Below are positions 31,127-61,758 of a stretch of 64,000 bases of DNA, one piece after another. The DNA is taken from IMG/VR virus record IMGVR_UViG_3300012000_000001, positions 64,001-128,000 of that record. The stretch is one strand, 5' to 3'. This DNA is from a virus. Numbering within the stretch: position 1 is the first letter of the stretch; each line of letters begins with the position of its first letter. A program made the translations under genes and the position numbers. Below the pieces are notes generated by a model, which was not told the origin of the DNA, did not search any database, and saw only the letters and a list, made by a program, of their open reading frames with translations.

Positions 31127-31924
31127 TTAATCCTCAATGGTTAAAATTAGTGGTGTTTTAGACTGTTCACAAGATTTGATAGTATCAACTAGTTTATTAA
31201 ATATCAATATTCCTCTGGCATTTGAAAAATCTTTGGTTTGTTTGATTCTGATCAGATGCCATCCTTTACCAGTAATCAAGCCTTCTTTTTTCTTATCATA
31301 TTTAATGTTACGATCAAGAGATTGCTCGCCCCATACCGGCTCAAAATGAGAAGGTCCGTCAACTTCAATAGCCGTACCCATAGTAGGCAAGAATAGGTCA
31401 ATTTGCAACTTGGTATTGACTAGAGATTGTTCTTTATGAAATTCTACAACATAGCCTGATCCCAATAACTCTTTGAGTAAAAACTTTTCTAGTTTTGAGC
31501 CAACTTTGCTTGACTCTCTAATTGCTACAATAGCCGCCTGTTGCATATTCTCTTTTTGGTTGATATCTAATTTATCCCAATTTGCTTTAGCCTTGGCTTT
31601 GCGTGATGCTAATTCTTGATCATCTAATGATTCCCAAGCATTTAACACACCTAGGCCAATTTTTTGTTTAATATCTGATGATCTTTCAGTTCCTTTTGTT
31701 GGATGCTTATGCTTTCCTGTCTGTAAAGCATTTTTTTGTGCATCCGACTTATTTCTAATGGTTATGTGAAATTTTTTAGCATCTCTTCTAACTTTGTTAG
31801 GATAGGTAGACCATGCCTCTGCTATATCAGCAAAGCTTTTATTTAATTGTTCATACCATGTTCTAATAATCTGTTCTTTTTGCTTATCAGACAAATTATC
31901 ATATATATTTTGAGATTTCGTCAT
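31127..31924 (-). CDS. Free-standing Vsr/DUF559-like (EDxHD-type) endonuclease with NUMOD3-like segment, putative homing endonuclease
   Basis: KGTERSSDIKQKIG (NUMOD3-like); IDLFLP...AIEVDGPSHF...YDKKK...GWHLIRI. Confidence 0.7.
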   Translation of the reverse strand: MTKSQNIYDNLSDKQKEQIIRTWYEQLNKSFADIAEAWSTYPNKVRRDAKKFHITIRNKSDAQKNALQTGKHKHPTKGTERSSDIKQKIGLGVLNAWESLDDQELASRKAKAKANWDKLDINQKENMQQAAIVAIRESSKVGSKLEKFLLKELLGSGYVVEFHKEQSLVNTKLQIDLFLPTMGTAIEVDGPSHFEPVWGEQSLDRNIKYDKKKEGLITGKGWHLIRIKQTKDFSNARGILIFNKLVDTIKSCEQSKTPLILTIED

Positions 31925-32357
31925 AAGTAAATCGCTCCACTACTGCTACGGGTTTTTTCCAGCACATTGAATATAGGTCGTTTAATACGGGGCTTGAGAC
32001 TATAATATCTAGATTATCTTGATCATAAATAGACTTCCACTGACTATACAAAGACGAACCTGATTGTGTCCAGTGAGCATCCGAAGTAAAGAGTATTCTT
32101 TGGCTAATATTGGGAAACTTATTAGTTAAAATCACACTCGGTATATCAAATAATATAAGCTTACCATAAAAAAATTGGGATTGCTGAAGATGCAACAACG
32201 GAACGTTAAACGTATTGATACGATCCGAATAACTATTAAAAACTAAGTGTTCTTGATAAGGTCTATGCTTTATAAAATCAGAAATAGTTGATAAGATATT
32301 ATCATAGATTTTGTTATTCAATAACTTAATTAATACAAAGCCTATATCTTCATTCAT
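31899..32357 (-). CDS. Hypothetical protein, possibly a GT-B half-domain
   Basis: 152 aa at the end of the GT cluster; DIIVSSPVL...KKPVAVVERF resembles the end of a GT-B N-lobe. Confidence 0.5.
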   Translation of the reverse strand: MNEDIGFVLIKLLNNKIYDNILSTISDFIKHRPYQEHLVFNSYSDRINTFNVPLLHLQQSQFFYGKLILFDIPSVILTNKFPNISQRILFTSDAHWTQSGSSLYSQWKSIYDQDNLDIIVSSPVLNDLYSMCWKKPVAVVERFTYDEISKYI

Positions 32358-33090
32358 AGTTTAGTATTTCTTTCAAAAAGCGACCATATGTAATAGTATC
32401 TGACTGAGTTATATTGTCTATAGACTTTTTTTGATAAACATTTTGAGCAATATCTTCTATGGTTATGGGTATACATCCACAAGCAATTGCTTCTGTCCTA
32501 TAGTTGAGCCCTATATCTAAATTAATATCTAGATAATATTTATGATTTTGTAGCAATGCTGCCTTATCTGGCTCTGTTACCATACCCAAGTTCTGATAAT
32601 GCTTAATACTAGGACAATTAAACATTTTAATAGGTATGTTGGTTTTTGGATATAGCAAATCAGACATGCTATTAATAATACTTGATAAACCTTCCATGAA
32701 ACATACTATACCATCGGTTCTATTGGTATTGTCTTTGTTATAAAACAGCTGATCATTGATGAGATACGGAGGTATGATAATATCTGTATCGGCGTATCCT
32801 ATAGTTTTAATATTGCTATCATGAATAGCATTTTGCAAACTTGATAAAGCATTATGGTTTAGAACAAAAAAGTATATTTTGGTGGTACCAGAGTAGTCCT
32901 GACAAAACTGTACAATTTCATTAGATATTCCATTGGCAGCAAATATACAATAGTCGGGCTTGTGTCTAAAAAAGGTTTGATACAGATTGTTATCTATTGC
33001 TATATCAATAATTCTTATTTTCTCTGATGATATAGACGAACAGTTCTGTAAAAACTTACCAGGACCCTGTTGTATAAGAAGAGATTTCAT
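32350..33090 (-). CDS. Divergent GT-B glycosyltransferase-like protein
   Basis: DKAALLQNHKYYL...YRTEAIACGCIPI retains the EAxxCG motif. Confidence 0.55.
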   Translation of the reverse strand: MKSLLIQQGPGKFLQNCSSISSEKIRIIDIAIDNNLYQTFFRHKPDYCIFAANGISNEIVQFCQDYSGTTKIYFFVLNHNALSSLQNAIHDSNIKTIGYADTDIIIPPYLINDQLFYNKDNTNRTDGIVCFMEGLSSIINSMSDLLYPKTNIPIKMFNCPSIKHYQNLGMVTEPDKAALLQNHKYYLDINLDIGLNYRTEAIACGCIPITIEDIAQNVYQKKSIDNITQSDTITYGRFLKEILNYE

Positions 33091-33758
33091 ATAAATGTTT
33101 TAGCCTTTGGCAAATCCTTAATAGTATTAATTTTCATAACTTTAGTTTTATTTATATAGTGCTTATCAATAATTATATTATTAGCAATCATTTGATTTAA
33201 TAATTCAAACAAATACATTTGACCAATATTTTTTTGTTGTATAATATCATGCAATCCTAGAACAGCTTCGCCATCCAAATACACACATTCGGCCCACGGC
33301 TCAGGCAAATCATAAAAAATGTATTCTGTAGATTTATTAGTGGTAACACATCCTAGATTAAAGTTTTCTTTAGTTTTGTCAAGAAGAAATAATTTGGACT
33401 TACCAGACAACAGGTTTCTTGTAAGTGCATTGTTTTTTAATAAAATGCCATTATTAATAATTAATAAATTTTTTGGAGAATGATCTTGCAAATATAATCT
33501 AATTGATTCTGCTTGATTAGTATCTTTATACATGGGGTTAAAACTATACCCCACGTTCAAAGAATCTAGCATATCATGTATACGATCAGCCTCAAATCCT
33601 GTTGCGACCGTTATGTGTGTTTTAAGATCCAGACTTTTTATAGTATGTATCTGATATTCTAATACCTTGGTATGCTTTTTAATTTCTAATAGGGCTTTGG
33701 AACCTATAGACTTCATACCCTTAGTAATTTCTGGTACTAAAATCAAAACATTCAGCAT
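33087..33758 (-). CDS. Divergent sugar/choline-phosphate nucleotidyltransferase-like protein (LicC/MobA-like fold)
   Basis: LILVPEITKGMKSIGSKALLEI...VLEYQI...ITVATGFEADRI...N.MYKDTNQAESIRL. Confidence 0.65.
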   Translation of the reverse strand: MLNVLILVPEITKGMKSIGSKALLEIKKHTKVLEYQIHTIKSLDLKTHITVATGFEADRIHDMLDSLNVGYSFNPMYKDTNQAESIRLYLQDHSPKNLLIINNGILLKNNALTRNLLSGKSKLFLLDKTKENFNLGCVTTNKSTEYIFYDLPEPWAECVYLDGEAVLGLHDIIQQKNIGQMYLFELLNQMIANNIIIDKHYINKTKVMKINTIKDLPKAKTFI

Positions 33759-33761
33759 TTG

Positions 33762-34178
33762 TTAAACAATTATTCTTTCGATGGTTATGGTAATATTATA
33801 TTTATTATAGTTAACATTCATTAATTTAAATGTATTAATATCAATTAAAGATAATACATCTTCTGGTATAATAATGTTGCTTTTGCCTCGTAGCGCATCA
33901 AAGATTTGTGATGATGGTAGTTTAGAATTACTAAAATCTTCGAATAATTTTTTGAAATTAGTAAAACTGACCACCATTTGACCACTTGGTTTTAATTTGG
34001 CTAAACTATTAGCAATAATATCTCGCAAATTTTCCTTATCTAGATATTCTAAACAAGAGCACAAAATATTATCTGCTGAATGATTAACGATCTGATCTAT
34101 ATTATTATAGATGGTTTTTTGATATCCCGCCACACTGGAGAGTGGCTCTGATACACTGACTATGTGATAATTTCTCAT
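33762..34178 (-). CDS. Truncated class I methyltransferase-like protein
   Basis: ADNILCSCLEYL...LAKLKPSGQMVV matches the C-terminal part of class I MTases; no glycine-rich motif I. Confidence 0.5.
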   Translation of the reverse strand: MRNYHIVSVSEPLSSVAGYQKTIYNNIDQIVNHSADNILCSCLEYLDKENLRDIIANSLAKLKPSGQMVVSFTNFKKLFEDFSNSKLPSSQIFDALRGKSNIIIPEDVLSLIDINTFKLMNVNYNKYNITITIERIIV

Positions 34179-35050
34179 GCAGTAAAAAACTCCTCAAATT
34201 TAATTTTATTTAATAGATTACTTATACTATTGGTAAACTGATCAAAATTATGGTTTGTCTTAATCCATGATTGGTTTTTGTTAATATCTTCTAAACTTAA
34301 TGAATCATTAATAATTGAGCTTAATACATTATTAATATTTCCATAATCAAATAACTGTGTTATACCAGTTAAATTTTCTGATTGGGCCGTTGAGGTTACT
34401 GTTTTGCAGCCCAGGTATTGGGCTATTAGAATATGAAGATGATTATAAATGTCAATTACCACTTGATATTTAGACATTATTTCGTATAGTCTATCAATAG
34501 ACTGTATATTCTGTAGGCTATCTATTATTTGAGCAGTGGGTATGGACGTTTTAATGTGTTGATATAAACCATTAATATCTGTAGTACCATTTAGATTCAT
34601 TACTAGCACAGATTCGGTTTTTGGTACATTCTCAAATTCAGACCTAACCGGGATACCGTATGGGATAATAAAAGAACGCTGGTCGCTAAAACCCCAAGCG
34701 TTTTTGGTAACCTCGTCAGTAAATATTTTGTATGTATTAGATAATTGATTTCTGACTAGTGCTATGTCTTCTTTTTTAAATTTTAATGGAGGGTTGGCAT
34801 GAAACCATAACAGATCTAATAGGTGGGCATTTGCGACCAATGATTTAGTATTCTGTGTATGTTCAAAAAAATTATTGCTCCAAAATAAATCATAATAGTA
34901 ATGTTGGTATTGATTGCCCATATCATACAAACTATGTTCAGTAAGCCTAACTAATAAGTCAAAAACATGATTAGTTGGAGCATATAAGACATTGGTTCGA
35001 CTGTCTATATTTTTGTATGCTATGTTATATATTGTATTTAGAGTAGACAT
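34175..35050 (-). CDS. Divergent GT-B glycosyltransferase-like protein
   Basis: SFIIPYGIP..EF, DRLYEIMSKYQVVI...LIAQYLGCKTVT (eroded GT4 C-lobe). Confidence 0.55.
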   Translation of the reverse strand: MSTLNTIYNIAYKNIDSRTNVLYAPTNHVFDLLVRLTEHSLYDMGNQYQHYYYDLFWSNNFFEHTQNTKSLVANAHLLDLLWFHANPPLKFKKEDIALVRNQLSNTYKIFTDEVTKNAWGFSDQRSFIIPYGIPVRSEFENVPKTESVLVMNLNGTTDINGLYQHIKTSIPTAQIIDSLQNIQSIDRLYEIMSKYQVVIDIYNHLHILIAQYLGCKTVTSTAQSENLTGITQLFDYGNINNVLSSIINDSLSLEDINKNQSWIKTNHNFDQFTNSISNLLNKIKFEEFFTA

Positions 35051-36054
35051 CAGATATACTTATTAATATGTTGTGTTTTAAATAATGAGATTTGATTGGA
35101 AGTATTTTTAGAAACTATATATGCTTTTATAGCAGAGTTTATGCTTTCAGAAGATATTTTTAATGATCCATTATAGCTAATATAATTAGCGTGATTGGTT
35201 AGATTAAAATGATAATCTGTATTAATTTTTAGTATTGAATTGTTGAGACTAGAAGCTAGTTTGGTATTAATGCTATTAGAACCATAGTCTATTGCGTCTA
35301 TATAAGTATTAGCTGATTTATGTGCAATACAGATATTATTTAAATCAGAAGATATAGGCGCTATAATCACTCTACTAAGTGTATGGTTTATACCCATTGC
35401 CTTATAGGCATCTTGAATAAATTTTTCTAATTCTGACTTTTCATTTGCTGTTATATCTAGAGTAAATAATATCAACACCATGTCTTTAGATTTTAGATTA
35501 GCGATAAACGCAACTATAATATCATAAATGACTCTGGCATTTAATTTATAGTTACATACCATGTAGAGCTTAGTATTGCTATTGCCGAACAAACCAATAT
35601 TAAAAGAAGTAGCTGGTGATGCTGTTACAGAAAATGTGTAGTCTATATTCTTGATGTTTTTTTGTAAAAATGGATATGCCTGAGAAAGCCTGACGGCATC
35701 ACTCTTATTGTCGATTAATATAGTTGAAAATTTAGATAAGTTTTGTGCTTCAGTTTGATCTATTAGATCTGGACTCATAATAGGGATCAAGATATTATTT
35801 TGTACGGCGTTTATGGGTCTCGCTTGTTCTAATGGAACATGCTGAATTACCGTATCTAATTTGTCTATTTGATTTTTTTCTTTAGTACTTAGTACATTAT
35901 CAATAGCGTCTATAGCGTATTTACTATCAATAAACAATGGTCTAAGCTGAACATTATTTGATGATCCACTAATTATATTATGGGCTAAAGCCCTAGACCA
36001 TATGCCGTTCAGATCTCTTTGTCTATATGGTCCTATATATAGAATATTTTTCAT
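35050..36054 (-). CDS. Divergent GT-B glycosyltransferase-like protein
   Basis: ILYIGPY...GIWSRAL N-terminus; IIVAFIANLKSKDMVLIL and IAHKSANTYI in GT4-like positions; EGFG motif lost. Confidence 0.55.
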   Translation of the reverse strand: MKNILYIGPYRQRDLNGIWSRALAHNIISGSSNNVQLRPLFIDSKYAIDAIDNVLSTKEKNQIDKLDTVIQHVPLEQARPINAVQNNILIPIMSPDLIDQTEAQNLSKFSTILIDNKSDAVRLSQAYPFLQKNIKNIDYTFSVTASPATSFNIGLFGNSNTKLYMVCNYKLNARVIYDIIVAFIANLKSKDMVLILFTLDITANEKSELEKFIQDAYKAMGINHTLSRVIIAPISSDLNNICIAHKSANTYIDAIDYGSNSINTKLASSLNNSILKINTDYHFNLTNHANYISYNGSLKISSESINSAIKAYIVSKNTSNQISLFKTQHINKYI

Positions 36055-37721
36055 TATGTATTACTTTTTAAGTGAGCATATTGTATAAAGTCTTCATCAA
36101 ACTTAGTATTATTTATTTTTACATTATGTGCTTGGTTATTATTGTCGATTAGAGTATTAATATAGTCTAGTACTCCATTAAAATCAAACGCGGCCATAGA
36201 CATAGCACTACTTTGAACAAAGCCGTAATCGGCGTTGTTTAATAATTCTAGCATTTTGTGAGATCCTATGATTCCAGGATCTTTAAAATTATTATTACAA
36301 ATCGCTATTAGCTGATCAAAATATTCTTGTGGCTGTACGTTGGTTTGTGGTTTGACATTTACTTGATATTCTCCATCATTCCAGTCGGCTCTGTAGCTCT
36401 TGGCATTCAAAGAATCTAGATATTGTTCCCATTTTTTAGCAATAATATCCCAATTATAATACTGATGTGCTAATCCTTGTATTTCATGCCTAAGACTTTC
36501 TCTGGTTGGTGCTGGTTTGTTAATAAAGTCTAGAATATAGTTACTAAGGTCTTCATTATCTGGATAGGCTCTTAGGGCCTTAGTTTCTAGTTCCTTAAAT
36601 AATGTACGAACCTTAATTGGATATGCTTTAAGTTTTTTAACTATGTCGCACATTGCACTATAATTAACTGTAGCAATGGGCACTCCGCAAGCCCCTGCTT
36701 CGACTTGTGGCATCCCAAAGCCTTCGCATATTGAATATTGTATGTATAAATCAAATATGTTATAGATGCTGCTTAGTGTTTCTGGTGTAACGCCGTCAGT
36801 AACTGACGGGAATGTCATTGTTTTGCTCATGCATCTCTTGCATACTTTTTGAGCACCGCTAAAAACAGAACATTCAGTCACTTTGCAACTTTTGCAAATA
36901 TACGTAAAAAGTACCTTATTGGCCACTCTATACTGTCTTAGTAGCTCAGGAATATCCCAACCCATATCAGGGTAGCTGGTGTGTAAATAAAGATATAGGT
37001 TATGTCCTATGGGACTATTGTCTGATTGTAGTTTATCTAACGTTTTTCTAAAAACACTAAATAATTCTGGTATAAGCTTTCGTTTTTGGTTCCTCATAAC
37101 AGAACCAATAATAATGGAGTCTTGAGATAAGCCTAGTTGTTGTTTAACTTCGGCACGGTTTTTAATTTTAAATACATTAATATCCACACCGGGAGATGCT
37201 GTATCTATATAGTTGATTTTATTAGATGACTGCTCTTTTAATACCTCTGCGCCCCAGTCAGAATAAGTAAAAATTGCATCCGCACCTAAAAAAGTATCTA
37301 TCCATTCTTCTTGTTGAGGAGAGGAATCGACCGTTGGCATCAATATCCAATGGAAAAATTTTCGTAGTGGAGACATTGCTTGATAGGCACTCATCCAGTA
37401 GTCTCTAACATCAATGACAACATCTGGCTTAAAGTCTAATAAAACTTTCTCAAATCTCCAGCGACCAAATTGATTGTCTACCCTCGACATATACTCTTTA
37501 TGTCTTGGGTCGGTATCTCTCACCGCATTGGCGTAATATTTCCAATGAATAGAAGAATCTCTAGGATCATTGACAAATCCATATGAAGCAAATTCTGCTA
37601 TTTCATACTTATTTGTTTTGTGCAGCCTAGAGAGTAGCTCTTTCGCATAAATACCGAAACCAGAATTAACAAAGCTGGCTTCTGAACACATTAAGACTTT
37701 AAGTTTGTTTTTTGTCATCAT
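36054..37721 (-). CDS. Glycosyltransferase family 4 (GT-B)
   Basis: SGFGIYAKEL, SPGVDINVF, IGSVMRNQKRK, IYNIFDLYIQYSICEGFGMPQVEAGACG. Confidence 0.9.
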   Translation of the reverse strand: MMTKNKLKVLMCSEASFVNSGFGIYAKELLSRLHKTNKYEIAEFASYGFVNDPRDSSIHWKYYANAVRDTDPRHKEYMSRVDNQFGRWRFEKVLLDFKPDVVIDVRDYWMSAYQAMSPLRKFFHWILMPTVDSSPQQEEWIDTFLGADAIFTYSDWGAEVLKEQSSNKINYIDTASPGVDINVFKIKNRAEVKQQLGLSQDSIIIGSVMRNQKRKLIPELFSVFRKTLDKLQSDNSPIGHNLYLYLHTSYPDMGWDIPELLRQYRVANKVLFTYICKSCKVTECSVFSGAQKVCKRCMSKTMTFPSVTDGVTPETLSSIYNIFDLYIQYSICEGFGMPQVEAGACGVPIATVNYSAMCDIVKKLKAYPIKVRTLFKELETKALRAYPDNEDLSNYILDFINKPAPTRESLRHEIQGLAHQYYNWDIIAKKWEQYLDSLNAKSYRADWNDGEYQVNVKPQTNVQPQEYFDQLIAICNNNFKDPGIIGSHKMLELLNNADYGFVQSSAMSMAAFDFNGVLDYINTLIDNNNQAHNVKINNTKFDEDFIQYAHLKSNT

Positions 37722-37724
37722 AAG

Positions 37725-37759
37725 AATACGGGGGTCCGCTATTCACAGACCCCCGCATT
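37725..37759 (-). terminator. GC-rich hairpin after ssb, probable intrinsic terminator/attenuator
   Basis: Minus strand AAUGCGGGGGUCUG-UGAAUAG-CGGACCCCCGUAUU: 14-bp stem with two G-U pairs, followed by a short U-rich tail. Confidence 0.7.
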
Positions 37760-37780
37760 TGTCCTAAATTCCTATCAGAA

Positions 37781-38152
37781 TTAAAATGCTACAGGCTCAG
37801 ATGATTCCTGCTTACTGTTCTTGGTAAGGCGGGTAATCTTAGAGAAGTTATTAACCCTAACCTTAAGACTACTATGCTTAACGCCATCCTTTTCCCATGT
37901 GTCATTACGTAATGATCCTTCGACCATTACTAGATCGCCCTTCTTAAAAGATTCAGCGATCATCTCGGCGCCACTATCCCAAGCCTCACAATTAATAAAG
38001 GATGTAATCTTATCCTTGTCTCCACTGGCCTTGGTATACTCGCGTGATACCGCTACAGTAAAATTGACAACAGATGTTTGCTTGCCTCCAGTATTCACAA
38101 CCCTTAGTTCTGGATCACGAGCAAGATTACCCCTTAGCAATGTTATATTCAT
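37781..38152 (-). CDS. ssb: Single-stranded DNA-binding protein
   Basis: MNITLLRGNLARDPELR...FTVAVSR...FINCEAW...KGDLVMVEGSLRNDTWEKDG, C-terminal ..PVAF; AAGGAG RBS before ATG 38152. Confidence 0.95.
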   Translation of the reverse strand: MNITLLRGNLARDPELRVVNTGGKQTSVVNFTVAVSREYTKASGDKDKITSFINCEAWDSGAEMIAESFKKGDLVMVEGSLRNDTWEKDGVKHSSLKVRVNNFSKITRLTKNSKQESSEPVAF

Positions 38153-38192
38153 TTCAAACTCCTTGGTAAAAAAGAAACCACGCAACTATTAC

Positions 38193-38220
38193 ATTATAGT
38201 GAAGAGCCCCTTTCTGTCAA
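38193..38220 (-). promoter_or_regulatory. Sigma70-type promoter upstream of ssb
   Basis: TTGACA (38220-38215), 16 nt, TATAAT (38198-38193): exact consensus hexamers. Confidence 0.75.
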
Positions 38221-39842
38221 GCCACGGGCTCAAAACACTTTTCTACGATCAGACCATCCTTGCTTTTGCTTTTATTCCCAGAAAATACTAGAATATTTCC
38301 TAAAAATAAATATGAACGATATTTGGAGAATTGTTCTGGAAATAATACTACCGAATCTAATGTTCCATATTGATCTTCTATAGTAACAAATGCCATCTCC
38401 AACCCTGGATTTTTTCCACTCTTAGTTTTTGTCACATTAATATTACTAATTTCTCCAACCAATACAATATTTTCTTTTAATAAAGATGTTTTAAATGTTT
38501 TACAATTGCAATTGGCCATAGTAATATCATAAACATCTAATTTGGAACACGTAATACCCACACCCAAAAGCTCATTTTCTTGATCGGATAACCATTCAAT
38601 TTTATCGATTAAAGAATATGGTGGATGCTCTAGTGATTTGATATAATTAGATACTGTTTCTTTACGGCCACGAATTAGTTTGGTCTCAACAAACAGCCTT
38701 TGCATAATTTCTTTTACACTGCTACCAATCATTGTTTTAGCATATACATTAAATACTGTTTGTTCTTTCTTTGTTAGGCCGGAACAAATATCGTATTCAA
38801 ATAACATTTCTGATCTATTCTTTTTATAGTAATCAAATGCACCACAGCTAATCAATGCCTTGGCGGCGACAGAATTAATATTCATTAGTATGGTGCCTAT
38901 CATTTCTGGCCAAGATACTTCTGATATATTAACGTTTTTTGTTAGTTGTAAAATTTTAGTATATACAGATTTGCCAACTCCCTTTATATCAGTCAGGCCA
39001 AAGTATATTTTTTTATCTTTTAATACAAAAAACTCATTGGTATTTCTAAAATCAGGAATATGAACTTCTATGTCCATTTCCATCGCATTTCTAACTAATT
39101 CTTTAATTTCTTGTTGTGGATCGATTTTGTCTTTAGCAAACCTTAAATATGATGCGAAGAAAACTTTTGGGAAATGTGCCTTGGCATATGCCGACAAATA
39201 TGCATTCATTGCATAACTGATAGAATGACTAGCATTAAATAAATATCTTTGAGATTTTTCAATCCATTCAAAGATTTGTGCGGCCTCTGCTTCTGATAGT
39301 TTTCCTGTTTTTTTAGCTCCTTCTATAAATTGTTTGCGTACCTTTGCCATCTTGTCAGCCTGTTTTTTTCCAATCGCTTTTCTTAAGTCATCCGCTTCTT
39401 TAAGATTAAAACCAGCTAACTCTTTAGCGATAGACATAGCTTGTTCTTGGTAAATCATTTCAGAATAAGTGTCTTTTAAAATTGGTTCTAATGCCGGATG
39501 AAAATAATCAATAGACTCTAAACCATTTTTCTTATCTATATAATGACTACTTACGCTCTTACCGTCACGATGAGCCTCTAGACACCCCGGCCTTAAAATA
39601 CTAATAAGCCCAGATAGCTGTTCAATATTTTGAGGCTTCAATTTTCTGGCCATGGTTTGACCAAGCCTTGATTCTAATTGAAAGCACCCCTTGGTATTTC
39701 CAGCAGAAATAAGCTCCCATGTTTTATAACAATCAAGACTAATATCAGATAACTTAGGAGAAAATTTAATTTTAGGAAATTCTCCACTTTTGTCCAACAC
39801 TTCAAACTTACAACCGCAATCAAATACAAAAAAGTCTGACAT
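38217..39842 (-). CDS. dnaE: DNA polymerase III alpha subunit, C-terminal half (fingers, HhH, OB fold)
   Basis: GCFQLES, LISILRPG, IYQEQAM, DDLRKAIGKK, FNASHSISYA, GLTDIKGVG, MAFVTIEDQYG. Confidence 0.93.
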   Translation of the reverse strand: MSDFFVFDCGCKFEVLDKSGEFPKIKFSPKLSDISLDCYKTWELISAGNTKGCFQLESRLGQTMARKLKPQNIEQLSGLISILRPGCLEAHRDGKSVSSHYIDKKNGLESIDYFHPALEPILKDTYSEMIYQEQAMSIAKELAGFNLKEADDLRKAIGKKQADKMAKVRKQFIEGAKKTGKLSEAEAAQIFEWIEKSQRYLFNASHSISYAMNAYLSAYAKAHFPKVFFASYLRFAKDKIDPQQEIKELVRNAMEMDIEVHIPDFRNTNEFFVLKDKKIYFGLTDIKGVGKSVYTKILQLTKNVNISEVSWPEMIGTILMNINSVAAKALISCGAFDYYKKNRSEMLFEYDICSGLTKKEQTVFNVYAKTMIGSSVKEIMQRLFVETKLIRGRKETVSNYIKSLEHPPYSLIDKIEWLSDQENELLGVGITCSKLDVYDITMANCNCKTFKTSLLKENIVLVGEISNINVTKTKSGKNPGLEMAFVTIEDQYGTLDSVVLFPEQFSKYRSYLFLGNILVFSGNKSKSKDGLIVEKCFEPVA

Positions 39843-39843
39843 A

Positions 39844-40542
39844 TTATCTAATACTAAAAGCTGATTTAAACTTTACCTTTGTCGCTATATTTCTATGTAA
39901 TCTTAAAAATCTAATAAGAATATCCGCCGTATCTCTAACATCTTTTAGAGCATCATGAGCGCCTTCTTTATCTATGCCTAAATAGTCTCTCAGGTTATCG
40001 AGTGTATAATTTTTGAGTTCATTATTTCCTTCAAACCAGTAAAATACCAAATTCATTAAATCTATAACATCTCTTGGATAAAATATATCCGACCTACCCT
40101 CTTTGTTAAGATTATCATATTTTTTACTTAGTCTCTCAATAATCCGAAGATCGAATCTGTTTATATTATAACCAGCTGCAATCGGTGCCGTAAAGCATGA
40201 TTTTTTGCCGGTTGAGCGAGAATGATACATATTCAGGTATGATATGAATAACTTCCAGCCATTTTCTTGTTTTTGATAAGATTTCCAGTCACAAAGAATT
40301 TCTTCTTTGGGCTTTGATCTGACCTTGGCATGAAAATCTAGCACATCAGAATCTGCATATGCATATTCAATATTATTCTCTAGCGCTTCTGGTTTAACAG
40401 TTATATTAAATTCAGAGTCTGGAATAATCTCTAATCGATACGGATCAATCATTAGAGCAGCAATCTGAACGGGGCTACAAAGATCCGGATTAGCCCCGTC
40501 CGTTTCTAAGTCAAATACACAAATTTTTTGTAGATTAGCCAT
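39844..40542 (-). CDS. DEDDh 3'-5' exonuclease (DnaQ-like)
   Basis: VFDLETDG (ExoI), AGYNINRFDL (ExoII), HDALKDV (ExoIII). Confidence 0.92.
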   Translation of the reverse strand: MANLQKICVFDLETDGANPDLCSPVQIAALMIDPYRLEIIPDSEFNITVKPEALENNIEYAYADSDVLDFHAKVRSKPKEEILCDWKSYQKQENGWKLFISYLNMYHSRSTGKKSCFTAPIAAGYNINRFDLRIIERLSKKYDNLNKEGRSDIFYPRDVIDLMNLVFYWFEGNNELKNYTLDNLRDYLGIDKEGAHDALKDVRDTADILIRFLRLHRNIATKVKFKSAFSIR

Positions 40543-40714
40543 TCACCACTACTACTGTTGAACCTGGAAAAAATGCCTTTTGGTTAGTGTCTGATGCTAC
40601 CTGACAATTAATTGACCTACAGCAACTAACTCTAACCTCTTCTGTTTTAACGTACTCAACACCGTTGACTGTAAACTGTGTGCCAACGGCAACCTCTTCA
40701 AATTTCTTTTCCAT
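40535..40714 (-). CDS. 59-aa microprotein with CC..C motif (not in ORF track)
   Basis: Hand translation: MEKKFEEVAVGTQFTVNGVEYVKTEEVRVSCCRSINCQVASDTNQKAFFPGSTVVVVNG*. It fills the dnaE-N/exonuclease gap exactly. Confidence 0.75.
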   Translation of the reverse strand: MEKKFEEVAVGTQFTVNGVEYVKTEEVRVSCCRSINCQVASDTNQKAFFPGSTVVVVNG

Positions 40715-40716
40715 AA

Positions 40717-42585
40717 TTACTCTCCATATTGTAATATATCTGATATTGTCATAATCTTATCCAACATTGCAACACCTAGAATATCAAATTTGATCAAACC
40801 AAGACCTTCTAAGTCCTGCATTTCCATACCGGCTATGGCTTGTTTATTTCTGGTGTCATATACCATAGGACATACAGAACTCAGATTTTCACTACTAATA
40901 ACTACACCGGCAGCATGTTTTGATTGATTAGATTTAGTACCCTCTAATCGTATTGCCTGCTCAAATCTTTTTGCCAACGGACCTTCGAGCACGTTGTCAT
41001 TAGATATATAGCACCATTCCTTGAGCTTGTCAACATTATTTTCTAATGCCCACTGAATAATAGAAGCTTCACCGGTATCTTCTTTCATTTCTTGAAGCTC
41101 GTCTGCAATTTTGGCTTCGTCTGGAATATTTTTTGTAATCCTATTCATTTCATCAAACGAAATATTGCCATATACTCTTAAAACTTCTTTAAGAGCCCCT
41201 CTACCTTTCATAGTATTGAAAGTAATCATCTGAGAAACCTTATTTGCACCATACTTATTTTTAATATAGTCAATAATATATTCTCGTTTGGTGATAGGTA
41301 CGTCAACATCTATATCTGGCATGGATATGTGATCGACTGTATTTCGCCCCTCATTATAAAATCTTTCGAATAACAAATCATATTTGATAGGATTAATATC
41401 TGTTATACCTATTAGATATGATACCAGACAACCAGCAGCACTACCTCTTCCGGGACCGGGAAGCCAGCCATGGGATTTAACGTGATTCACAATATCCTGA
41501 ACAATTAGAAAGTAGCTGGACAAACCCGCATTTTGTAAAACACTGAGTTCAAATTTAATTCTGTTTAAATAAGTTTCGTGTTCAGTTTCGGGTATTTTAT
41601 TAGATATTTTATCTCGCCAACCATTTCGGCATAGTTGTCTGAGGTATTCGTCTGGTTCTAAATTATTAGGACAATCAAATTTAGGCAAAGCCGGTTTGCT
41701 TAAAATGCTGTATTCTTCACACAAAGAATCAACATAGAGAGTATTCTCAATTTCTTCTTCTGTGTGTAGTGCAAACATTTCTTCTGGAGACAGAATATGA
41801 TAGTTATCTGACTGAAAAAAACAACTTAGAGGAACTTCCTGATTGGCTAAAAGTTTTTTGTTAACGTCTACTAGTGTTGTTTTAAGATTATTACACAACA
41901 ATATACGTTGATCTATAGCATCCTCTTTATTGCAATAGTGTGCGTCTGGAGTGCAGATTACTTTTGTATTGGTTTTCTGTCCAAGAGCACGAACAAAATC
42001 AGTAACCTCTTGCTGCATAGGGTTTAACACCCTATCCATTAGTTGTACCTCAAGGAAAAAATTTTCTGGACCAAAAATTTCTTTCATCTTGGCTACAAAA
42101 TCTATGCCAGTCTTTTCAGCAGTGTTTGAGGATGTTTCAACCAAATCTGGCAACAAAGACCCTAGGTGGCCACAAAATCCTATAATGTTTCCATCTAAGA
42201 AATTTGCTAATTTATCCATACTAATTCTAGGCTTATGATAAAAATTTTCTTCTCTATTAGTTTCAGAAACTATAGAAATAAGCCTACGCCAACCAGCCAA
42301 GTTTTTAGCCAATACTAAAAAATGACTTAAGCCATTATTTTCTTTAGACTTGATAGTAGAATCATCATGAGAAATATATAGTTCACACCCCAAAATAGGT
42401 TTGATGTTTTGAGCCCTAAGTGCTTGAAAAAACTGTAAGGAACCAGATATGGTGCCATGATCAGTAAGGGCACAAGACTTTATGCCTACACTAGCACATC
42501 TTTGTGCTATTTGATGAGGCTTACTAATTCCATCCAATAAACTGTAGTGAGAATGATTATGCAAAGAGGCGTATGTTTTTGTCAT
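40717..42585 (-). CDS. dnaE: DNA polymerase III alpha subunit, N-terminal half (PHP and palm)
   Basis: HNHSHYS, LTDHG, PILGCE, TPDAHY, PGRGSAAG, MPDIDVD, HAAGVVIS, IKFDILG, then stop. Confidence 0.95.
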   Translation of the reverse strand: MTKTYASLHNHSHYSLLDGISKPHQIAQRCASVGIKSCALTDHGTISGSLQFFQALRAQNIKPILGCELYISHDDSTIKSKENNGLSHFLVLAKNLAGWRRLISIVSETNREENFYHKPRISMDKLANFLDGNIIGFCGHLGSLLPDLVETSSNTAEKTGIDFVAKMKEIFGPENFFLEVQLMDRVLNPMQQEVTDFVRALGQKTNTKVICTPDAHYCNKEDAIDQRILLCNNLKTTLVDVNKKLLANQEVPLSCFFQSDNYHILSPEEMFALHTEEEIENTLYVDSLCEEYSILSKPALPKFDCPNNLEPDEYLRQLCRNGWRDKISNKIPETEHETYLNRIKFELSVLQNAGLSSYFLIVQDIVNHVKSHGWLPGPGRGSAAGCLVSYLIGITDINPIKYDLLFERFYNEGRNTVDHISMPDIDVDVPITKREYIIDYIKNKYGANKVSQMITFNTMKGRGALKEVLRVYGNISFDEMNRITKNIPDEAKIADELQEMKEDTGEASIIQWALENNVDKLKEWCYISNDNVLEGPLAKRFEQAIRLEGTKSNQSKHAAGVVISSENLSSVCPMVYDTRNKQAIAGMEMQDLEGLGLIKFDILGVAMLDKIMTISDILQYGE

Positions 42586-43622
42586 ACCGATCCTGGTGCC
42601 TTATAAGATCCAAAAGAGTGATTCGGGTGTTTGTACAGTTCCATTGTAGTGTCGATACCGTAAAGATCAAGGTCGTGCTTTATCTGCTCGCACTTAGTCA
42701 TTTTCTGTCCAATCTGACACACCTGACCGTCCCTATATTCGACTATGGGTTCGATATTGGTGTTTTCAAATGTGGTTTTACCAAAATGACATAGCTTGCT
42801 ACACATCCAGCTTTTGTTTAGTCTTGGCTTCCGTGTGCTTTTAATAGCTTCAAATTTAGCCCGTAGCATATTCTCAGTATCTGCTAAATCAGAATCATGA
42901 AAACAAATGGTGAATGGTCCGCCATCATTAATAAAATATATCGAAAACATAATATGTTTAATATGTGGATATAAGTGCTTGATAGCATAATGATAAATGC
43001 GTAATTGAGGATCTTTTTCTAGTTTTTCTTGTGTTTTTTCTTCCCCGGTTGCCCAATCAAGCCTTCTGCCTGTTTTCCAGTCTATGATCTCTATAGTATC
43101 CTCATTCACTAAAGTAATAAGGTCTATAGTCCCCTTCATTGCTAAATTACCTGCTATCGTTTGAGACCCAACATTATATGAGTATTTAGCCCATGGTTTT
43201 TTAATCTCAAAATCAAAGTGTTGTTCTGGACACAGTATCTGTCTATTTCTTGGATCAAACATTCCATTATTAAATTTTATAGCCTTATAGACCCAGGCAT
43301 GACAATCCTTATAATCTTTAGCCGACCATTTGTGGTGTTGTGTGAGGTCAGTATAGTGCTTATATACTTGTTCAATAATGCTATTTAAGTTATATTTATT
43401 TACATTTATTAAACCAACTACATCATCGTCAATAGACTCCAAATTATCTTGTTGAGCCTTCTTGATGACTGCTAAAATTTCTAAAACCTTATGGGTAATA
43501 GTGCCTTTGTCTGCCTTTTGGCCAGATAGACCACGCCACCCTAAAACATATTCCCCAAAATATTGTTGTTCACACATTGAGTGTGTATTGTAACTGGAAC
43601 TACGAAAATATGTTATAATCAT
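42582..43622 (-). CDS. PD-(D/E)XK exonuclease (RecB/Cas4-like)
   Basis: GTIDLI...IIDWKTG...QLRIYHYA; N-terminal Cys plus C-terminal CSKLC...C cluster suggests an Fe-S staple. Confidence 0.85.
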   Translation of the reverse strand: MIITYFRSSSYNTHSMCEQQYFGEYVLGWRGLSGQKADKGTITHKVLEILAVIKKAQQDNLESIDDDVVGLINVNKYNLNSIIEQVYKHYTDLTQHHKWSAKDYKDCHAWVYKAIKFNNGMFDPRNRQILCPEQHFDFEIKKPWAKYSYNVGSQTIAGNLAMKGTIDLITLVNEDTIEIIDWKTGRRLDWATGEEKTQEKLEKDPQLRIYHYAIKHLYPHIKHIMFSIYFINDGGPFTICFHDSDLADTENMLRAKFEAIKSTRKPRLNKSWMCSKLCHFGKTTFENTNIEPIVEYRDGQVCQIGQKMTKCEQIKHDLDLYGIDTTMELYKHPNHSFGSYKAPGSV

Positions 43623-44350
43623 CTGGTCAATCCTAGGATTTTTTCTATTAATGTTTTTACTTGACTAACCTGATCATATATAGACGACTCAGCATTGTCT
43701 ATCACATGATCAAATTTGGACCAATCATACCTATCTTTATCTAAGATGCATTCGCTTAAATGATCAGAGTTGTGCGGATTCCGAGTAAGTCTTAATACTT
43801 TACCTCCGATATTTTGTATAGCCTCAACTTCGTTTGGAAAACGGCAATCGGTTATAACGGCTAGTTTGGGTTGTTCTCTCACAATTTTAGTAACTGTAGC
43901 TTTAACCCATACGTCAGAATCTAGCTTGCGAAAAATATCGGTCCCGATAATCTGCATAGCGTCTCTAGCAGTTAGCGGCTGATCATTCCATGTCAAGTGT
44001 GTTGGTTGGTTTTTGTCCATATCTGAGCCATAACACTGATCATATGTTAAACCCAAAATATTCATACAAATATCTTGTTTTAACACATCAGCAAAGTTAT
44101 AAATTTTAATTTGACTATTTAGTTTGGCTAATAGAGATTGGGCTTCTGTATCTGTTTTGGGTATAGATAACGGAGAGAACACCCCTTCGTATTGTTTATT
44201 TCCACCAAGGTCCGATATAAGAACCTGCCCATCTTCATCAAAAAATATTTTTTCAGCCAAATTAAGTTTAGCAATATATAACGATAAAATAAAATTACCC
44301 ACCGTTGTTTTCCCAGACTGCTTGCGACCAGAAACACCCAACACTATCAT
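43619..44350 (-). CDS. Deoxynucleoside monophosphate kinase
   Basis: GVSGRKQSGKTT, YNFADVLK, RDAMQIIGTDIFR, ITDCRFPNE. Confidence 0.88.
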   Translation of the reverse strand: MIVLGVSGRKQSGKTTVGNFILSLYIAKLNLAEKIFFDEDGQVLISDLGGNKQYEGVFSPLSIPKTDTEAQSLLAKLNSQIKIYNFADVLKQDICMNILGLTYDQCYGSDMDKNQPTHLTWNDQPLTARDAMQIIGTDIFRKLDSDVWVKATVTKIVREQPKLAVITDCRFPNEVEAIQNIGGKVLRLTRNPHNSDHLSECILDKDRYDWSKFDHVIDNAESSIYDQVSQVKTLIEKILGLTR

Positions 44351-45513
44351 ATAGTATATCCTTTAAGTTGTGGTACTATGCTTTCATGAATCTGTTCTAT
44401 TGTCATATCTGCAATATCATTAGAAGTTAATTGTATATGTTTAATGTTATATGTTCTACAACATTTCTCTTCAATATTTTTAGCAGCTGCCTGACCAGCT
44501 TGGTCATTGTCCATAATAGTAATTATGTTCATTGCGCCCGAAATGTCCAATAACATCTTCTGCTTGTGGCTTAATGATGCGCCGAAGATGGCAACAGCAT
44601 TGTGTATTCCTGCTTCTTCTAGTCTCCATACGTTACCGGGACTCTCTACAAGAATAACGGTATGAGAAGTAGAAATATGGTCTTTTGCAAACCAATAGTT
44701 GTACAGACACTCTTGGGTTTTAAAGTTTTTATTATGTCTCCATTTAGAATATTTCCAAATTTCACTATCTGATGGACAGTCGCTGTCTGGTATATGATAT
44801 CCTGAACATTGGCCGCATTTATCATGTATTGTTCTACCCGTACACCCAATCATATATTGGCCACTATCATCATAGACAGGGACAACCGCTCTAGAGTGCA
44901 TTTCTTTGTTGGGATCAGAGCAGTCTCCTACGTCATACCGTCTCAATACTTCCTCGCTGAACCCTCTATTTAAAAAGTAAGTGGAAGGAATCGACAATGC
45001 TTTAACAACCGATGCTCGGGGCACAGTGCTGATATTGGCCAACCTATCAGAAGGCTGAATATTTTTAATAGCATTAATAAAAGTGGACTTTTCTTTAGCC
45101 TTTTTAGACACCTTTATATTAGCAGGATCCTCTTTGCTAAAATCAATAGCATACCCAAGAGCCTCTGCAAAAGACACTACTGGGTCTCCGGGTTTTACCC
45201 ATCCCTTTTCATGAGATAAGCATCCTCTAATAAATCCTATGATAGAGGACTTGAATGTTTCCTCACATTGATGAGTACGACATTTCCAATTTCCCCTATA
45301 AGAATCTCCTTGATGATATAAATTAAAAGCAGAGTCATTATCCCCACCATGAATGGGACAACTCATAATGATCATTTTGTCTAACATTCTATAAGAAGTT
45401 ATACCAAGATGGCTCAAAAGGTTTTCAATATCATCACAAACAACATCAGATAAATGCTTTAACTGATGCTGATCATACGAAAGGTATTTCTTCTGTTTCT
45501 TCATTGTTTTCAT
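44347..45513 (-). CDS. dnaG: DNA primase (Zn finger plus TOPRIM)
   Basis: CPIHGGDN...WKCRTHQC; VILVESPGNV; IMDNDQAG. Confidence 0.9.
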   Translation of the reverse strand: MKTMKKQKKYLSYDQHQLKHLSDVVCDDIENLLSHLGITSYRMLDKMIIMSCPIHGGDNDSAFNLYHQGDSYRGNWKCRTHQCEETFKSSIIGFIRGCLSHEKGWVKPGDPVVSFAEALGYAIDFSKEDPANIKVSKKAKEKSTFINAIKNIQPSDRLANISTVPRASVVKALSIPSTYFLNRGFSEEVLRRYDVGDCSDPNKEMHSRAVVPVYDDSGQYMIGCTGRTIHDKCGQCSGYHIPDSDCPSDSEIWKYSKWRHNKNFKTQECLYNYWFAKDHISTSHTVILVESPGNVWRLEEAGIHNAVAIFGASLSHKQKMLLDISGAMNIITIMDNDQAGQAAAKNIEEKCCRTYNIKHIQLTSNDIADMTIEQIHESIVPQLKGYTI

Positions 45514-46945
45514 TGTTGCTAACTATAAACCCATCTTTTTTAGTTTGAACATTATTCATTAATTCTAATCTGGTCTTGCCCTCTGTAATTTTAGCACACC
45601 ACCCCTTCATATGACAGTTGATGTAGTCATTATCGTCTAATCCTCCACCATGGCGACTAATTAACGGAACCAGTTTTCTGTTTCCATGTTCTCCGCCATC
45701 TTCTGCAATCTCTTCGTCTGATTTACGTTTAAAAATAGTAAAGTTGCTGCACAACCATATAATTCTATCGGAACCGCTGGCAGTATCAGTACTTTCTTTA
45801 GATATGCCATCTCTATTTAATTGAATAAAGGCTACAATAGGTACTTTGTATTTAACGGCAAAATTATGTAATGATGTCATCATAAACCCAAGGACTTGGT
45901 ATTCTTTCATATCCTGAGAAATACCAGCAGAGTCCATGAGCTTTAGATAATCATAAAAAATTACACACTCTTTGGCAGTGCCGTCATCATTGAGCCCCAC
46001 TTCTTTAACTATCCACCTCCTCATTAGAGCTAGTTGTTCTTCAAATGATTTTCCTGCAATACTATGGTGGTAAAGTCTACTCTCCTTAAGCTCATTAACA
46101 GCCGCTTTCATCTTGGCTAAAGATCCGGGCGTATCTCCAAATTTGCCTGTTTCTATCTTAGATATTTCTAATTCTGATGACATAGCAAGTATACGATGCA
46201 CATGATCTTCTCTAGTCATTTCGGTATCCATATTCAATACCGGTATTTTTAACTTGCTAGCAATATAATAACCCATATTGTCTGATAGTAGTGTTTTACC
46301 TACTTTGGGTCTAGCTGCTATCACATTAACAGTTCCGCGACGTAATCCTCCACCAATAGACTGGTCATATACAGGAAAACCTGTTGAGATACCAATCTGA
46401 TCAACTTTATTCTCTTGTAAAGACTTAATATAATCATCAATATCTTTACTAATAGCCAACGGAGTAGATTCTCCGTCACTTGATAATGATGAAGCAAAGT
46501 TAAAGATGGAATCTTCTGCAATGCCTATTATAGAAGATATGTTTTCTGAGCCAGTAACATCTAATAGCTGTTCTTGCACACCTTCAAGTTCCTTATGGAG
46601 CAATCTCGCTATTTCGAGTTTCTTAATCTTTGCAGCAAATTTTCTAACATTCTCCAAATTAACTGGGAAGTCAAAAATTGCTTTGAGATGCTGCGCTTCT
46701 TCTTTCTTTGATAGAATATGAGAAAGATCTAGTTCTTGGGCAGAAGAGTATATCGAAGCCAGATCGATTTTAGTTTGTGAATTTTTATCACAGATATTCT
46801 TAATACATTTATAGATTATTTGATTGCTGTCAATAGTAAATGTATCTTCTTTAAGAATATCACAAATATCCAAATAGGCATCCTCACCATACTTTAAGAT
46901 GCCGCTCAATACCGCACGCTCTGCGGAAGGATCACATAAAATCAT
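45473..46945 (-). CDS. dnaB: Replicative DNA helicase
   Basis: AERAVLSG, ARPKVGKT, DTEM, FYDYLKLM, IQLNR, ASGSDRI. Confidence 0.93.
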   Translation of the reverse strand: MILCDPSAERAVLSGILKYGEDAYLDICDILKEDTFTIDSNQIIYKCIKNICDKNSQTKIDLASIYSSAQELDLSHILSKKEEAQHLKAIFDFPVNLENVRKFAAKIKKLEIARLLHKELEGVQEQLLDVTGSENISSIIGIAEDSIFNFASSLSSDGESTPLAISKDIDDYIKSLQENKVDQIGISTGFPVYDQSIGGGLRRGTVNVIAARPKVGKTLLSDNMGYYIASKLKIPVLNMDTEMTREDHVHRILAMSSELEISKIETGKFGDTPGSLAKMKAAVNELKESRLYHHSIAGKSFEEQLALMRRWIVKEVGLNDDGTAKECVIFYDYLKLMDSAGISQDMKEYQVLGFMMTSLHNFAVKYKVPIVAFIQLNRDGISKESTDTASGSDRIIWLCSNFTIFKRKSDEEIAEDGGEHGNRKLVPLISRHGGGLDDNDYINCHMKGWCAKITEGKTRLELMNNVQTKKDGFIVSNNENNEETEEIPFV

Positions 46946-56267: not shown

Positions 56268-56921
56268 TTAATAAACTATAGATTGCAATAATTTTTCCAT
56301 AATTTCAAATTTACTTTGATTAGTAGATACGCATGACACTTGAGGTATATGAACTAACGACCCAATTAATGGATAATCAACCACAGCCATTATTGATCTA
56401 TATATCAGTTTATGATAAGATAGCATGACCATATCAGAAGAATGTGCTTTATCATCAATTTTGATATAAAATTCTTTTTGGTGCGCCATGTAAACAAAGT
56501 GATCTATTGCCTTTTGAAAATCTACATCTGTACCGGACACAACACAAGGCACATGGTTTTGGTATATCGTGAGGCCGTCTCTGTTAAACATATCCAGATC
56601 TGTCATACCTAGGTTTAATACATCGTAGTCAATCATTATTCCACCACCGACAACAACCATAGCCACCCACCTCATAAAACAATGATAATCATACGGAATA
56701 GGATTGGCACTCGGTATACTCGCAAATATAGATTTATAAAAATCATATTTAGAATGTTGTCTAGCCATATCTTCTGATAAGACTTTAAAATCCCAACCGT
56801 GCCTATTCCAAGACCTTTGACACAATCCTATGAGTTGTTCTTGATCATAGTTTCTATTATTATTTATATCACTAATTAACTCATAATATGTATGGCATTT
56901 TTTATTCACGATAGTAGCCAA
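56268..56921 (-). CDS. Putative GT-A glycosyltransferase-like protein
   Basis: RWVAMVVVGGGIMIDYDV (GG..DxD pattern); SSDMVML. Confidence 0.55.
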   Translation of the reverse strand: MATIVNKKCHTYYELISDINNNRNYDQEQLIGLCQRSWNRHGWDFKVLSEDMARQHSKYDFYKSIFASIPSANPIPYDYHCFMRWVAMVVVGGGIMIDYDVLNLGMTDLDMFNRDGLTIYQNHVPCVVSGTDVDFQKAIDHFVYMAHQKEFYIKIDDKAHSSDMVMLSYHKLIYRSIMAVVDYPLIGSLVHIPQVSCVSTNQSKFEIMEKLLQSIVY

Positions 56922-58456: not shown

Positions 58457-58501
58457 AATTAATAATATTTAAATTTTTAGTATAAAAAAGTTAATATTTT
58501 T

Positions 58502-58728
58502 TTAGAGTCGGTAAGAGTATTCGTCTATATTTTTTGGTATCATATAATTTCGCCTAAGATAATATCTATATCATGCATAGAAATAATATTTGTTAATTCT
58601 AAGTTATTTTTATTGCTGAGGTCGGAATATAAATATGCTTTATTTATCTTGATCTGACATTCTATCTATAATTCTGTAAATATATCTATCATATAGTTTC
58701 GATTATAATCATTGATATAACCATCCAT
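58502..58728 (-). pseudogene. Amber-interrupted 62-codon ORF followed by a 13-aa MIPKNI stub
   Basis: ATG 58728 (TAATG-coupled), TAG at codon 21, frame open to TGA 58540; ATGA-coupled MIPKNIDEYSYRL* at 58543-58502. Confidence 0.4.
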
Positions 58729-61752: not shown

Positions 61753-61758
61753 TGGGTA

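Follow-up and report, generated by a model that had tools for sequence, protein, structure and literature searches.

All bacteria replicate their DNA with C-family polymerases, which so far have been studied either in single-chain form or as pieces rejoined by inteins. Known split members of the family are of two kinds, the split-intein forms, which include the fractured dnaE genes of Dassa et al. 2009 (PMC2677866), and the minimal, PHP-less module of jumbo phages (PMC7824862). Here we describe a DNA polymerase III alpha subunit (DnaE) that is encoded by two genes in the genome of an uncultured aquatic phage (IMG/VR record IMGVR_UViG_3300012000_000001; 197,026 bp, rated complete by CheckV). 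The window we analyzed is a stretch of 64,000 nucleotides, bases 64001-128000 of that record, with a G+C content of about 35%. The explanation that best accounts for the results as a whole, to which we give a probability of roughly 0.8, is a functional, naturally split C-family replicase whose halves assemble non-covalently, with an exonuclease and a microprotein as partners, and whose history includes one fission and two re-fusions.

In the cyanobacterial split dnaE and the metagenomic fractured dnaE genes, a C-family replicase is likewise encoded in two genes, and the fractured genes share with the phage locus an unrelated gene between the pieces and an aquatic origin; however, these systems have rejoining split inteins, a homing endonuclease in the gap, and other break sites, all of which are missing from the phage locus (PMC2677866). 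The Pol III alpha of group 2.2 jumbo phages is a C-family module split into two proteins that are predicted to reconstitute the enzyme (Iyer et al. 2021, PMC7824862). That module is a minimal core without PHP or other domains, cut within the catalytic module, encoded by distant genes, and accompanied by a PolB, whereas the phage described here has PHP, HhH, and OB-like domains, adjacent genes, a cut between palm and fingers, and no PolB.

Intein-free natural splits near or in the fingers, with the pieces adjacent or coupled, are known from family-B polymerases, namely gp43A/gp43B of T4-related Aeromonas and Acinetobacter phages and the Methanothermobacter PolB (Petrov, Karam et al., summarized in PMC3061061 and PMC2677866). 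Furthermore, a Pfu polymerase engineered with a split in its fingers is fully active, whether it is expressed from a bicistronic construct or reconstituted from separately purified fragments (PMC3061061). The fold of these enzymes is unrelated to that of DnaE, and few phages have them split, whereas in the very large clade of this phage the split form of DnaE predominates. The gap of split PolB genes contains no proofreader gene because PolB has its own exonuclease domain.

Compared with single-chain DnaE (Taq 2HPI/3E0D, E. coli 2HNH/5FKU, M. tuberculosis 5LEW/7PU7, and the unsplit phage forms P0124-P0163), the phage enzyme has the same domain order, catalytic residues, and finger motifs, but it consists of two polypeptides, carries a cysteine-containing head on the C-half, and has the exonuclease and microprotein genes inside its break. 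The E. coli Pol III core (alpha-epsilon-theta) also combines a DnaE-type polymerase with a separate DEDDh proofreader and a very small third protein, and its PHP metal site is decayed, as is that of most split lineages. E. coli theta is helical. The phage microprotein, in contrast, is predicted to be an all-beta barrel and occurs in one subclade, and the phage keeps an intact PHP site in addition to its exonuclease. The arrangement is not mentioned in surveys of viral replicases (PMC3201878) and of bacterial polymerases from 2026 (PMC12926913), and our literature searches found no paper describing it. New here are a rooted history in which re-fusion apparently happened twice and the exonuclease gene changed place, a variable island of genes in the gap, the cysteine head, the pattern of PHP decay, and the predicted fold of the microprotein.

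The two-gene polymerase and its break

The polymerase locus consists of the following features:

40717-42585, minus strand: DnaE N-half, 622 amino acids, with PHP, palm, and thumb (open reading frame and Pfam)
40535-40714, minus strand: microprotein of 59 amino acids (open reading frame), predicted to form a small six-strand beta-barrel of SH3/Tudor/KOW type
39844-40542, minus strand: DnaQ-like DEDDh 3'-5' exonuclease, 232 amino acids (Pfam RNase_T, PHROG 192)
38217-39842, minus strand: DnaE C-half, 541 amino acids, with fingers, HhH, and an OB-like C-terminus (open reading frame and Pfam)
39729-39818, minus strand: head at the N-terminus of the C-half, specific to split forms; C9-G-C11 is invariant, as is C38 just before KTW

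An earlier sequence-only reading of this DNA had described the same four open reading frames, and they were found exactly as described. The two DnaE frames lie 874 nt apart (39843-40716), with two other genes in the interval, and DnaE is not encoded here as one polypeptide. The four genes are translationally coupled, with spacers of 2, -8, and 1 nt: the TAA of the N-half is followed after 2 nt by the ATG of the microprotein, the microprotein and exonuclease genes overlap by 8 nt (ATGGCTAA), and a single nucleotide separates the TAA of the exonuclease from the ATG of the C-half. A Shine-Dalgarno-like GGAGAG is found inside the final codons of the N-half, and there is no terminator-like site within 37600-43000.

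Aligning both halves to full-length DnaE, the step that the sequence-only reading had suggested for mapping the breakpoint, shows that they abut and that nothing has been lost at the break. The N-half covers positions 41-612 and the C-half positions 622-1052 of PHROG 405, the profile of full-length DnaE, and on the unsplit relative P0124 residues 5-619 of the N-half align to 3-611 and residues 26-534 of the C-half to 617-1141. In regard to bacterial enzymes, N-half residue 608 pairs with residue 625 of Taq alpha and C-half residue 34 with 648, and C-half residue 31 pairs with residue 586 of E. coli alpha. The N-half terminates in ...QYGE, 21 residues past D601 of IKFDILG, while the motif GCFQLES occupies C-half residues 52-58. 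An AlphaFold2 model of P0124 (predicted local distance difference test score, pLDDT, 89.7) has D593 in a strand (591-597) followed by a helix (598-612) and a coil (613-629), and it is where this coil begins that the break maps. By this model, the break is in a loop shortly after the strand with the third catalytic aspartate, at the border between palm and fingers.

Each half is recognizable as its part of the enzyme. The N-half matches the Pfam families PHP (PF02811; 5.6e-34, 118 bits, residues 8-181) and DNA_pol3_alpha (PF07733; 1.2e-74, 251.7 bits), and its match to Taq alpha has an E-value of 1.7e-81. The catalytic residues D424, D426, and D601 align to the PDxD and KFD motifs of Taq alpha, and the aspartate triad is retained in 142-143 of 143 sampled split N-halves. 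The C-half matches DNA_pol3_finger (PF17657; 3.5e-44, 150.5 bits), HHH_6 (PF14579; 4.9e-09, 36.7 bits), and Taq alpha (2.9e-49), and contains the finger motifs LRKAIGKK (RxxxGKK) and FNASH (FNxSH). Its match to the OB fold (PF01336) reaches 24.8 bits, below the 27-bit cut-off; the P0124 model has a C-terminal beta domain at residues 1066-1145. This distribution, with the catalytic aspartates in the N-half and the finger motifs and OB-like region in the C-half, is the one that the sequence-only reading had proposed. One metagenomic representative (P0380, 762 amino acids) combines an N-half that stops at this break with a circularly permuted YpsA SLOG domain (PF12694, 1.6e-35) fused to its C-terminus. 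In the C-half, the sequence RSEMLF was considered as a clamp-binding motif and rejected, as it stands immediately after GAFD, a position at which E. coli alpha has an unrelated sequence, about 25 residues before its QADMF motif.

The break lies about 200 residues upstream of FNASH. The sequence-only reading had also held that it differs from the cyanobacterial split-intein site, and this is confirmed by a deep lineage (L093) in which a second, separate break occurs at FNxSH, which shows that the break in this phage and the classical split-intein site are two different places. DnaE in that lineage is in three pieces (L093:5001-10426), arranged as an N-half, the exonuclease, a 297-residue fingers piece ending past FNxSH, a 296-residue open reading frame with no recognized family, and a 375-residue piece. 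This second break coincides with the classical split-intein site, and both of its ends have spare residues; it is probably a split intein around a free-standing gene, that is, a 'fractured gene'. Two further proteins, P0250 and P0266 (881-891 amino acids; members of the two unsplit clades described below), terminate in an N-terminal intein fragment after the fingers, which reflects either the presence of split-intein dnaE in this phage group as well or the truncation of contigs.

The arrangement is conserved across related phages. In all 80 related IMG/VR loci (68-95% identity), the order is N-half, microprotein, exonuclease, and C-half as far as the contig reaches. With the order recurring in loci from many different samples, the arrangement is not due to chance or misassembly. 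We scanned 1.84 billion representatives of 50%-identity clusters with HMMER; 146 of the best 150 matches listed were new, and 139 of these 146 clusters are N-halves ending at this break. Thus both the breakpoint and the gene order are conserved in related phages, as the sequence-only reading had asked to see. A word-index search also returned thousands of homologues of about 620 amino acids. Comparison with a 95%-identical locus (L002) gave ratios of nonsynonymous to synonymous substitution (dN/dS) of 0.02 for the N-half, 0.15 for the microprotein, and 0.02 for the exonuclease; against more distant loci, synonymous sites are saturated and pN is 0.06-0.26. These values point to strong purifying selection on the four genes. 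Unsplit homologues with 40-56% identity are found in syntenic phage genomes, and the identity of the N-half to its unsplit phage relatives there is 50-56%. Thus, of the scenario raised earlier in which close relatives have an intact dnaE and this copy is decaying, the first part stands, with intact relatives that are nested and apparently re-fused rather than ancestral, while the second does not, as this copy is not decaying.

Cultured phages are distant from this group. Megablast found nothing similar to the locus among 50,697 phage records, and the best protein matches in that collection are only 35% identical for the N-half, 31% for the C-half, and 25% for the terminase. Palm, fingers, and DEDDh exonuclease (PF00929) are each encoded by a single gene in the whole 197-kb genome, which has no family A (PolA) or family B (PolB) polymerase. 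The split DnaE is therefore the sole DNA polymerase of the phage. The genome also has no detectable beta sliding clamp (PF00712), and processivity of the split polymerase presumably depends on the clamp of the host or on a factor that escaped recognition.

A proposed two-chain assembly and its partners

We propose that one coupled message would give rise to all four proteins, and that the N-half and C-half would associate non-covalently, so that the two chains, meeting at their interface, together make up the complete polymerase active site. The N-half would contribute the three catalytic aspartates, and the C-half would contribute the fingers for the incoming dNTP, the HhH region for binding of the duplex, and the OB-like domain. 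The contacts of the fingers with dNTP are established in structures of Taq and E. coli alpha. The head at the new N-terminus of the C-half may dock or stabilize the complex, possibly with a bound metal, the exonuclease may join as an epsilon-like subunit through its C-terminal tail, and the microprotein may act as a lineage-specific accessory. The assembly, its stoichiometry, and the roles of the cysteine head, the exonuclease tail, and the microprotein are all inferred here.

The motif of the head, CxC...C-x2-TW (here Cys3), is present in 76 of the 76 loci for which the start of a split C-half could be recovered, among them those of the deep lineages L087 and L090-L093. It is absent from unsplit forms and bacterial DnaE or present there only as a relic, and such relics (a cysteine before KTW) persist in the early-branching unsplit forms P0124 and P0125. 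We propose this head as the likeliest docking or stabilizing element of the two-chain enzyme, possibly one that binds metal.

The exonuclease matches RNase_T (PF00929; 1.2e-10, 42.6 bits against a cut-off of 24) and PHROG 192, 'DNA polymerase exonuclease subunit'. Its residues D11, E13, D131, H196, and D201 (Exo I-III) are invariant in four homologues that are 45-76% identical to P0003, and K222, V223, and F225 are conserved in the C-terminal tail. The nearest solved structures are small DnaQ-like exonucleases, the exonuclease domain of PolC, and ExoI, all with weak E-values. The gene is linked to dnaE in both split and unsplit genomes. The exonuclease would most likely dock as an epsilon-like subunit through its conserved tail.

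In the PHP domain, all nine metal-ligand positions are occupied (H9, H11, D18, H43, E68, H88, H140, D214, H216), in line with the earlier reading that these ligands look largely intact. With the full set of DEDDh residues in the exonuclease, two potential proofreading sites appear to coexist in this phage, as had been suggested. Among split representatives, all nine ligands are kept in 43 of 132 and three or fewer in 77 of 132, compared with all nine in 35 of 42 unsplit forms, counts in which relatedness is not controlled. The PHP site has decayed in most split lineages, which resembles the situation in E. coli, where epsilon proofreads.

The microprotein belongs to no Pfam or PHROG family. 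AlphaFold2 predicts a six-strand barrel like those of SH3, Tudor, and KOW domains (pLDDT 93.8); the best VIA-align score (Z 5.1) is to generic SH3/Tudor/KOW/EF-P-domain-I barrels, Foldseek gives no match at E <= 0.001, and the matches in the ESM Atlas are unnamed viral clusters only. Among the 80 loci there are 56 distinct variants, in which G11, F14, K23, and C31-C32 are invariant. The protein is confined to this subclade, apart from a weak homologue at the N-terminus of a 222-residue open reading frame in L087 that was detected with a hidden Markov model (HMM); the same HMM finds no homologue in the gaps of L090-L092. Because of this restriction, the microprotein cannot be a subunit that all forms of the split enzyme share. 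It may instead be a lineage-specific accessory or assembly factor.

History of the break and competing explanations

The split appears to be old. Two phylogenies of the N-half region, a FastTree tree of 189 sequences and an IQ-TREE tree of a 58-row subsample, were rooted on bacterial DnaE. Each requires only three state changes: the split is placed at the root of the phage group, and the unsplit forms fall into two clades nested within it. An approximately unbiased (AU) test of groups that were named after the first tree had been seen rejects monophyly of the split forms (difference in log-likelihood, delta lnL, 114; p = 0.0025). The two unsplit clades also differ in where their exonuclease is found. 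In L094, it lies immediately upstream of the unsplit dnaE (32% identity over the full length, including the tail), while in L082 and L083, where the homologues were located by tblastn within flanking sequence, it lies two genes downstream, in the order dnaE-SSB-glycosyltransferase-exonuclease. Because the unsplit clades are nested and the position of the exonuclease is different in each, one ancient fission followed by two independent re-fusions is the most economical history. This suggests a single origin of the split, at the root of a very large group of aquatic phages, and two later reversals by re-fusion, each accompanied by a move of the exonuclease gene.

The break itself behaves as a slot for gene insertion, with the exonuclease usually next to the C-half. 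The most basal split lineage (L090) has a 57-residue open reading frame, a 190-residue open reading frame, and a VWA-domain protein in its gap, and no recognizable exonuclease. The gap of L091 holds six small open reading frames including an exonuclease homologue, that of L092 five genes including a uracil-DNA glycosylase (UDG) and then the exonuclease homologue, that of L087 the 222-residue open reading frame and the exonuclease homologue, and that of L093 the exonuclease homologue alone. Membrane-like open reading frames and a HAD-like protein are also encoded in these deep-lineage gaps (L091:5001-11917, L092:5001-11029). L090 is contig SDBT01000021.1 (172 kb) of NCBI assembly GCA_004196315.1, probably a phage contig binned into a metagenome-assembled genome.

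Several alternatives to a non-covalent two-chain enzyme can be considered, and two of these would restore a single chain. A cryptic or degenerate split intein, or a cysteine-based ligation, might rejoin the halves covalently after translation. It seems sensible to consider this because dnaE in this clade is rich in inteins (two in the L091 C-half, others in P0131, P0135, P0137, and P0151, and split-intein-like N-fragments in P0250, P0266, and L093) and because invariant cysteines lie near the new N-terminus of the C-half. Nevertheless, Pfam finds no intein domain in either half, and the space for one is small: the N-half extends about 21 residues past D601 and the head of the C-half spans about 26, compared with 88-105 and 33-54 amino acids for the parts of split inteins (PMC2677866). 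The ...QYGE end lacks the C/S/T with which an intein starts, the head lacks a terminal HN followed by C/S/T, and most of the head aligns to polymerase sequence of unsplit relatives. Where inteins do occur in dnaE of this clade, they are inserted elsewhere, around residue 87 of the C-half and around residue 73 of the PHP domain. We therefore consider covalent rejoining very improbable, in agreement with the sequence-only reading, which had seen no intein signatures. Restoration at the level of RNA, with the gap spliced out as an intron bearing open reading frames or skipped by the ribosome to yield one fused polypeptide, strikes us as the least probable of all. Group I introns with open reading frames often interrupt phage genes, and dnaE of Enterococcus phage EF5 is annotated as two pieces around an HNH homing endonuclease gene, but Rfam detects no intron in 37500-43500 even at E <= 1, and the gap is fully occupied by two protein genes under selection whose start and stop codons are coupled to those of their neighbors. 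The variation of the gap among deep lineages, from one to six unrelated genes at a fixed break, is moreover incompatible with a conserved ribozyme.

Alternatively, the halves may no longer form one polymerase, because one or both have taken on another role (the N-half might serve as a PHP nuclease), with the host polymerase replicating the phage. PHP domains can have stand-alone exonuclease activity, and some host replisome parts must be used given that no beta clamp gene is detectable. Against this, the aspartate triad is invariant in split N-halves while the PHP ligands have mostly decayed, the opposite of what a PHP nuclease would predict; the finger motifs of the C-half are conserved; and the halves always co-occur, adjacent and ordered, inside a DnaB-primase-SSB module. 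We regard re-purposing as improbable, although less so than either form of rejoining. The last alternative concerns history rather than function, and is that the unsplit form is ancestral throughout the clade and that the same loop was split many times independently by insertion of an exonuclease cassette. A loop at a domain border is a natural place for an insertion, the gap is plainly a hot spot for inserted genes, and the fingertip of T4-type gp43 has been split several times (PMC3061061). Yet many gains would be needed where three changes suffice, the Cys3 head is common to all split lineages including the most basal L090, relics of it occur in the early-branching unsplit P0124 and P0125 and not in bacteria, and the position of the exonuclease differs between the two unsplit clades. 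Repeated splitting is in our judgment unlikely, and of the four alternatives it is the one we take most seriously.

A functional split replicase with a single origin thus remains our preferred explanation, and several points weigh against it. The association of the halves and their joint expression are predictions from the gene arrangement. The direction of evolution leans on parsimony, on the outgroup root, on quick and FastTree trees, and on AU groups chosen post hoc. A zinc site in the head is conjectural, because the head has only three invariant cysteines and we found in the N-half no split-specific Cys or His that would complete such a site. Finally, the microprotein is absent from deep split lineages and hence is not essential to the design. 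More tentatively, and with doubts that outweigh our confidence, we suggest that the split is ancestral and dominant in a huge clade of uncultured large aquatic phages and is held together by the CxC...C docking head, which may bind metal; that the break is an insertion slot that keeps the proofreader, and here also an SH3-like assembly factor, stoichiometrically coupled to the polymerase; and that the enzyme has been re-fused at least twice.

Significance and genomic setting

The phage enzyme is a natural, abundant, intein-free, two-chain version of a C-family replicase. If our explanation is true, the active site of such an enzyme can be completed across a subunit interface at the hinge between palm and fingers, a region that moves during nucleotide selection. 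On the more tentative reading above, fission and fusion of an essential replicase would both be evolutionarily accessible, because re-fusion would have occurred at least twice, and splitting might let the phage regulate assembly of its polymerase, or shield this assembly from host interference. The locus could also provide a ready-made system for dissecting and engineering the palm/fingers hinge, and split Pfu shows that cuts can alter substrate range (PMC3061061). In broader terms, it would be a rare documented case of fission and then apparent re-fusion of an essential enzyme, with a partner gene moving into and out of the break. There is also a consequence for annotation, in that thousands of metagenomic 'DNA polymerase III alpha' calls of about 620 and 540 amino acids would be halves of one enzyme and not fragments.

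The four polymerase genes sit in a replication module with the order DnaB, Toprim primase, dNMP kinase, PD-(D/E)XK nuclease, polymerase genes, and SSB, with RecA and NrdJ further upstream. Its other features in the window are as follows:

42582-46945, minus strand: upstream genes for a PD-(D/E)XK nuclease, a dNMP kinase, a Toprim primase, and a DnaB helicase, which form the replication context
37781-38185, minus strand: SSB gene, directly downstream of the C-half (Pfam SSB, 1.7e-25)

Synteny of the downstream SSB is kept in loci L082, L083, L087, and L090-L094, and the order of the upstream replication genes is the same in L090-L094. A perfect sigma-70 consensus (TTGACA, 16 nt, TATAAT; 12/12) is found on the minus strand at 38193-38220, where it overlaps the stop codon of the C-half just 5' of SSB. 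Because of this site, SSB may own a promoter, and the four polymerase genes may be co-transcribed from further upstream. Large glycosyltransferase clusters lie on both sides of the replication module (31899-37721 and 56268-62685), and a 555-residue glycosyltransferase following SSB is syntenic in both split and unsplit relatives (L082, L083, L090, L094).

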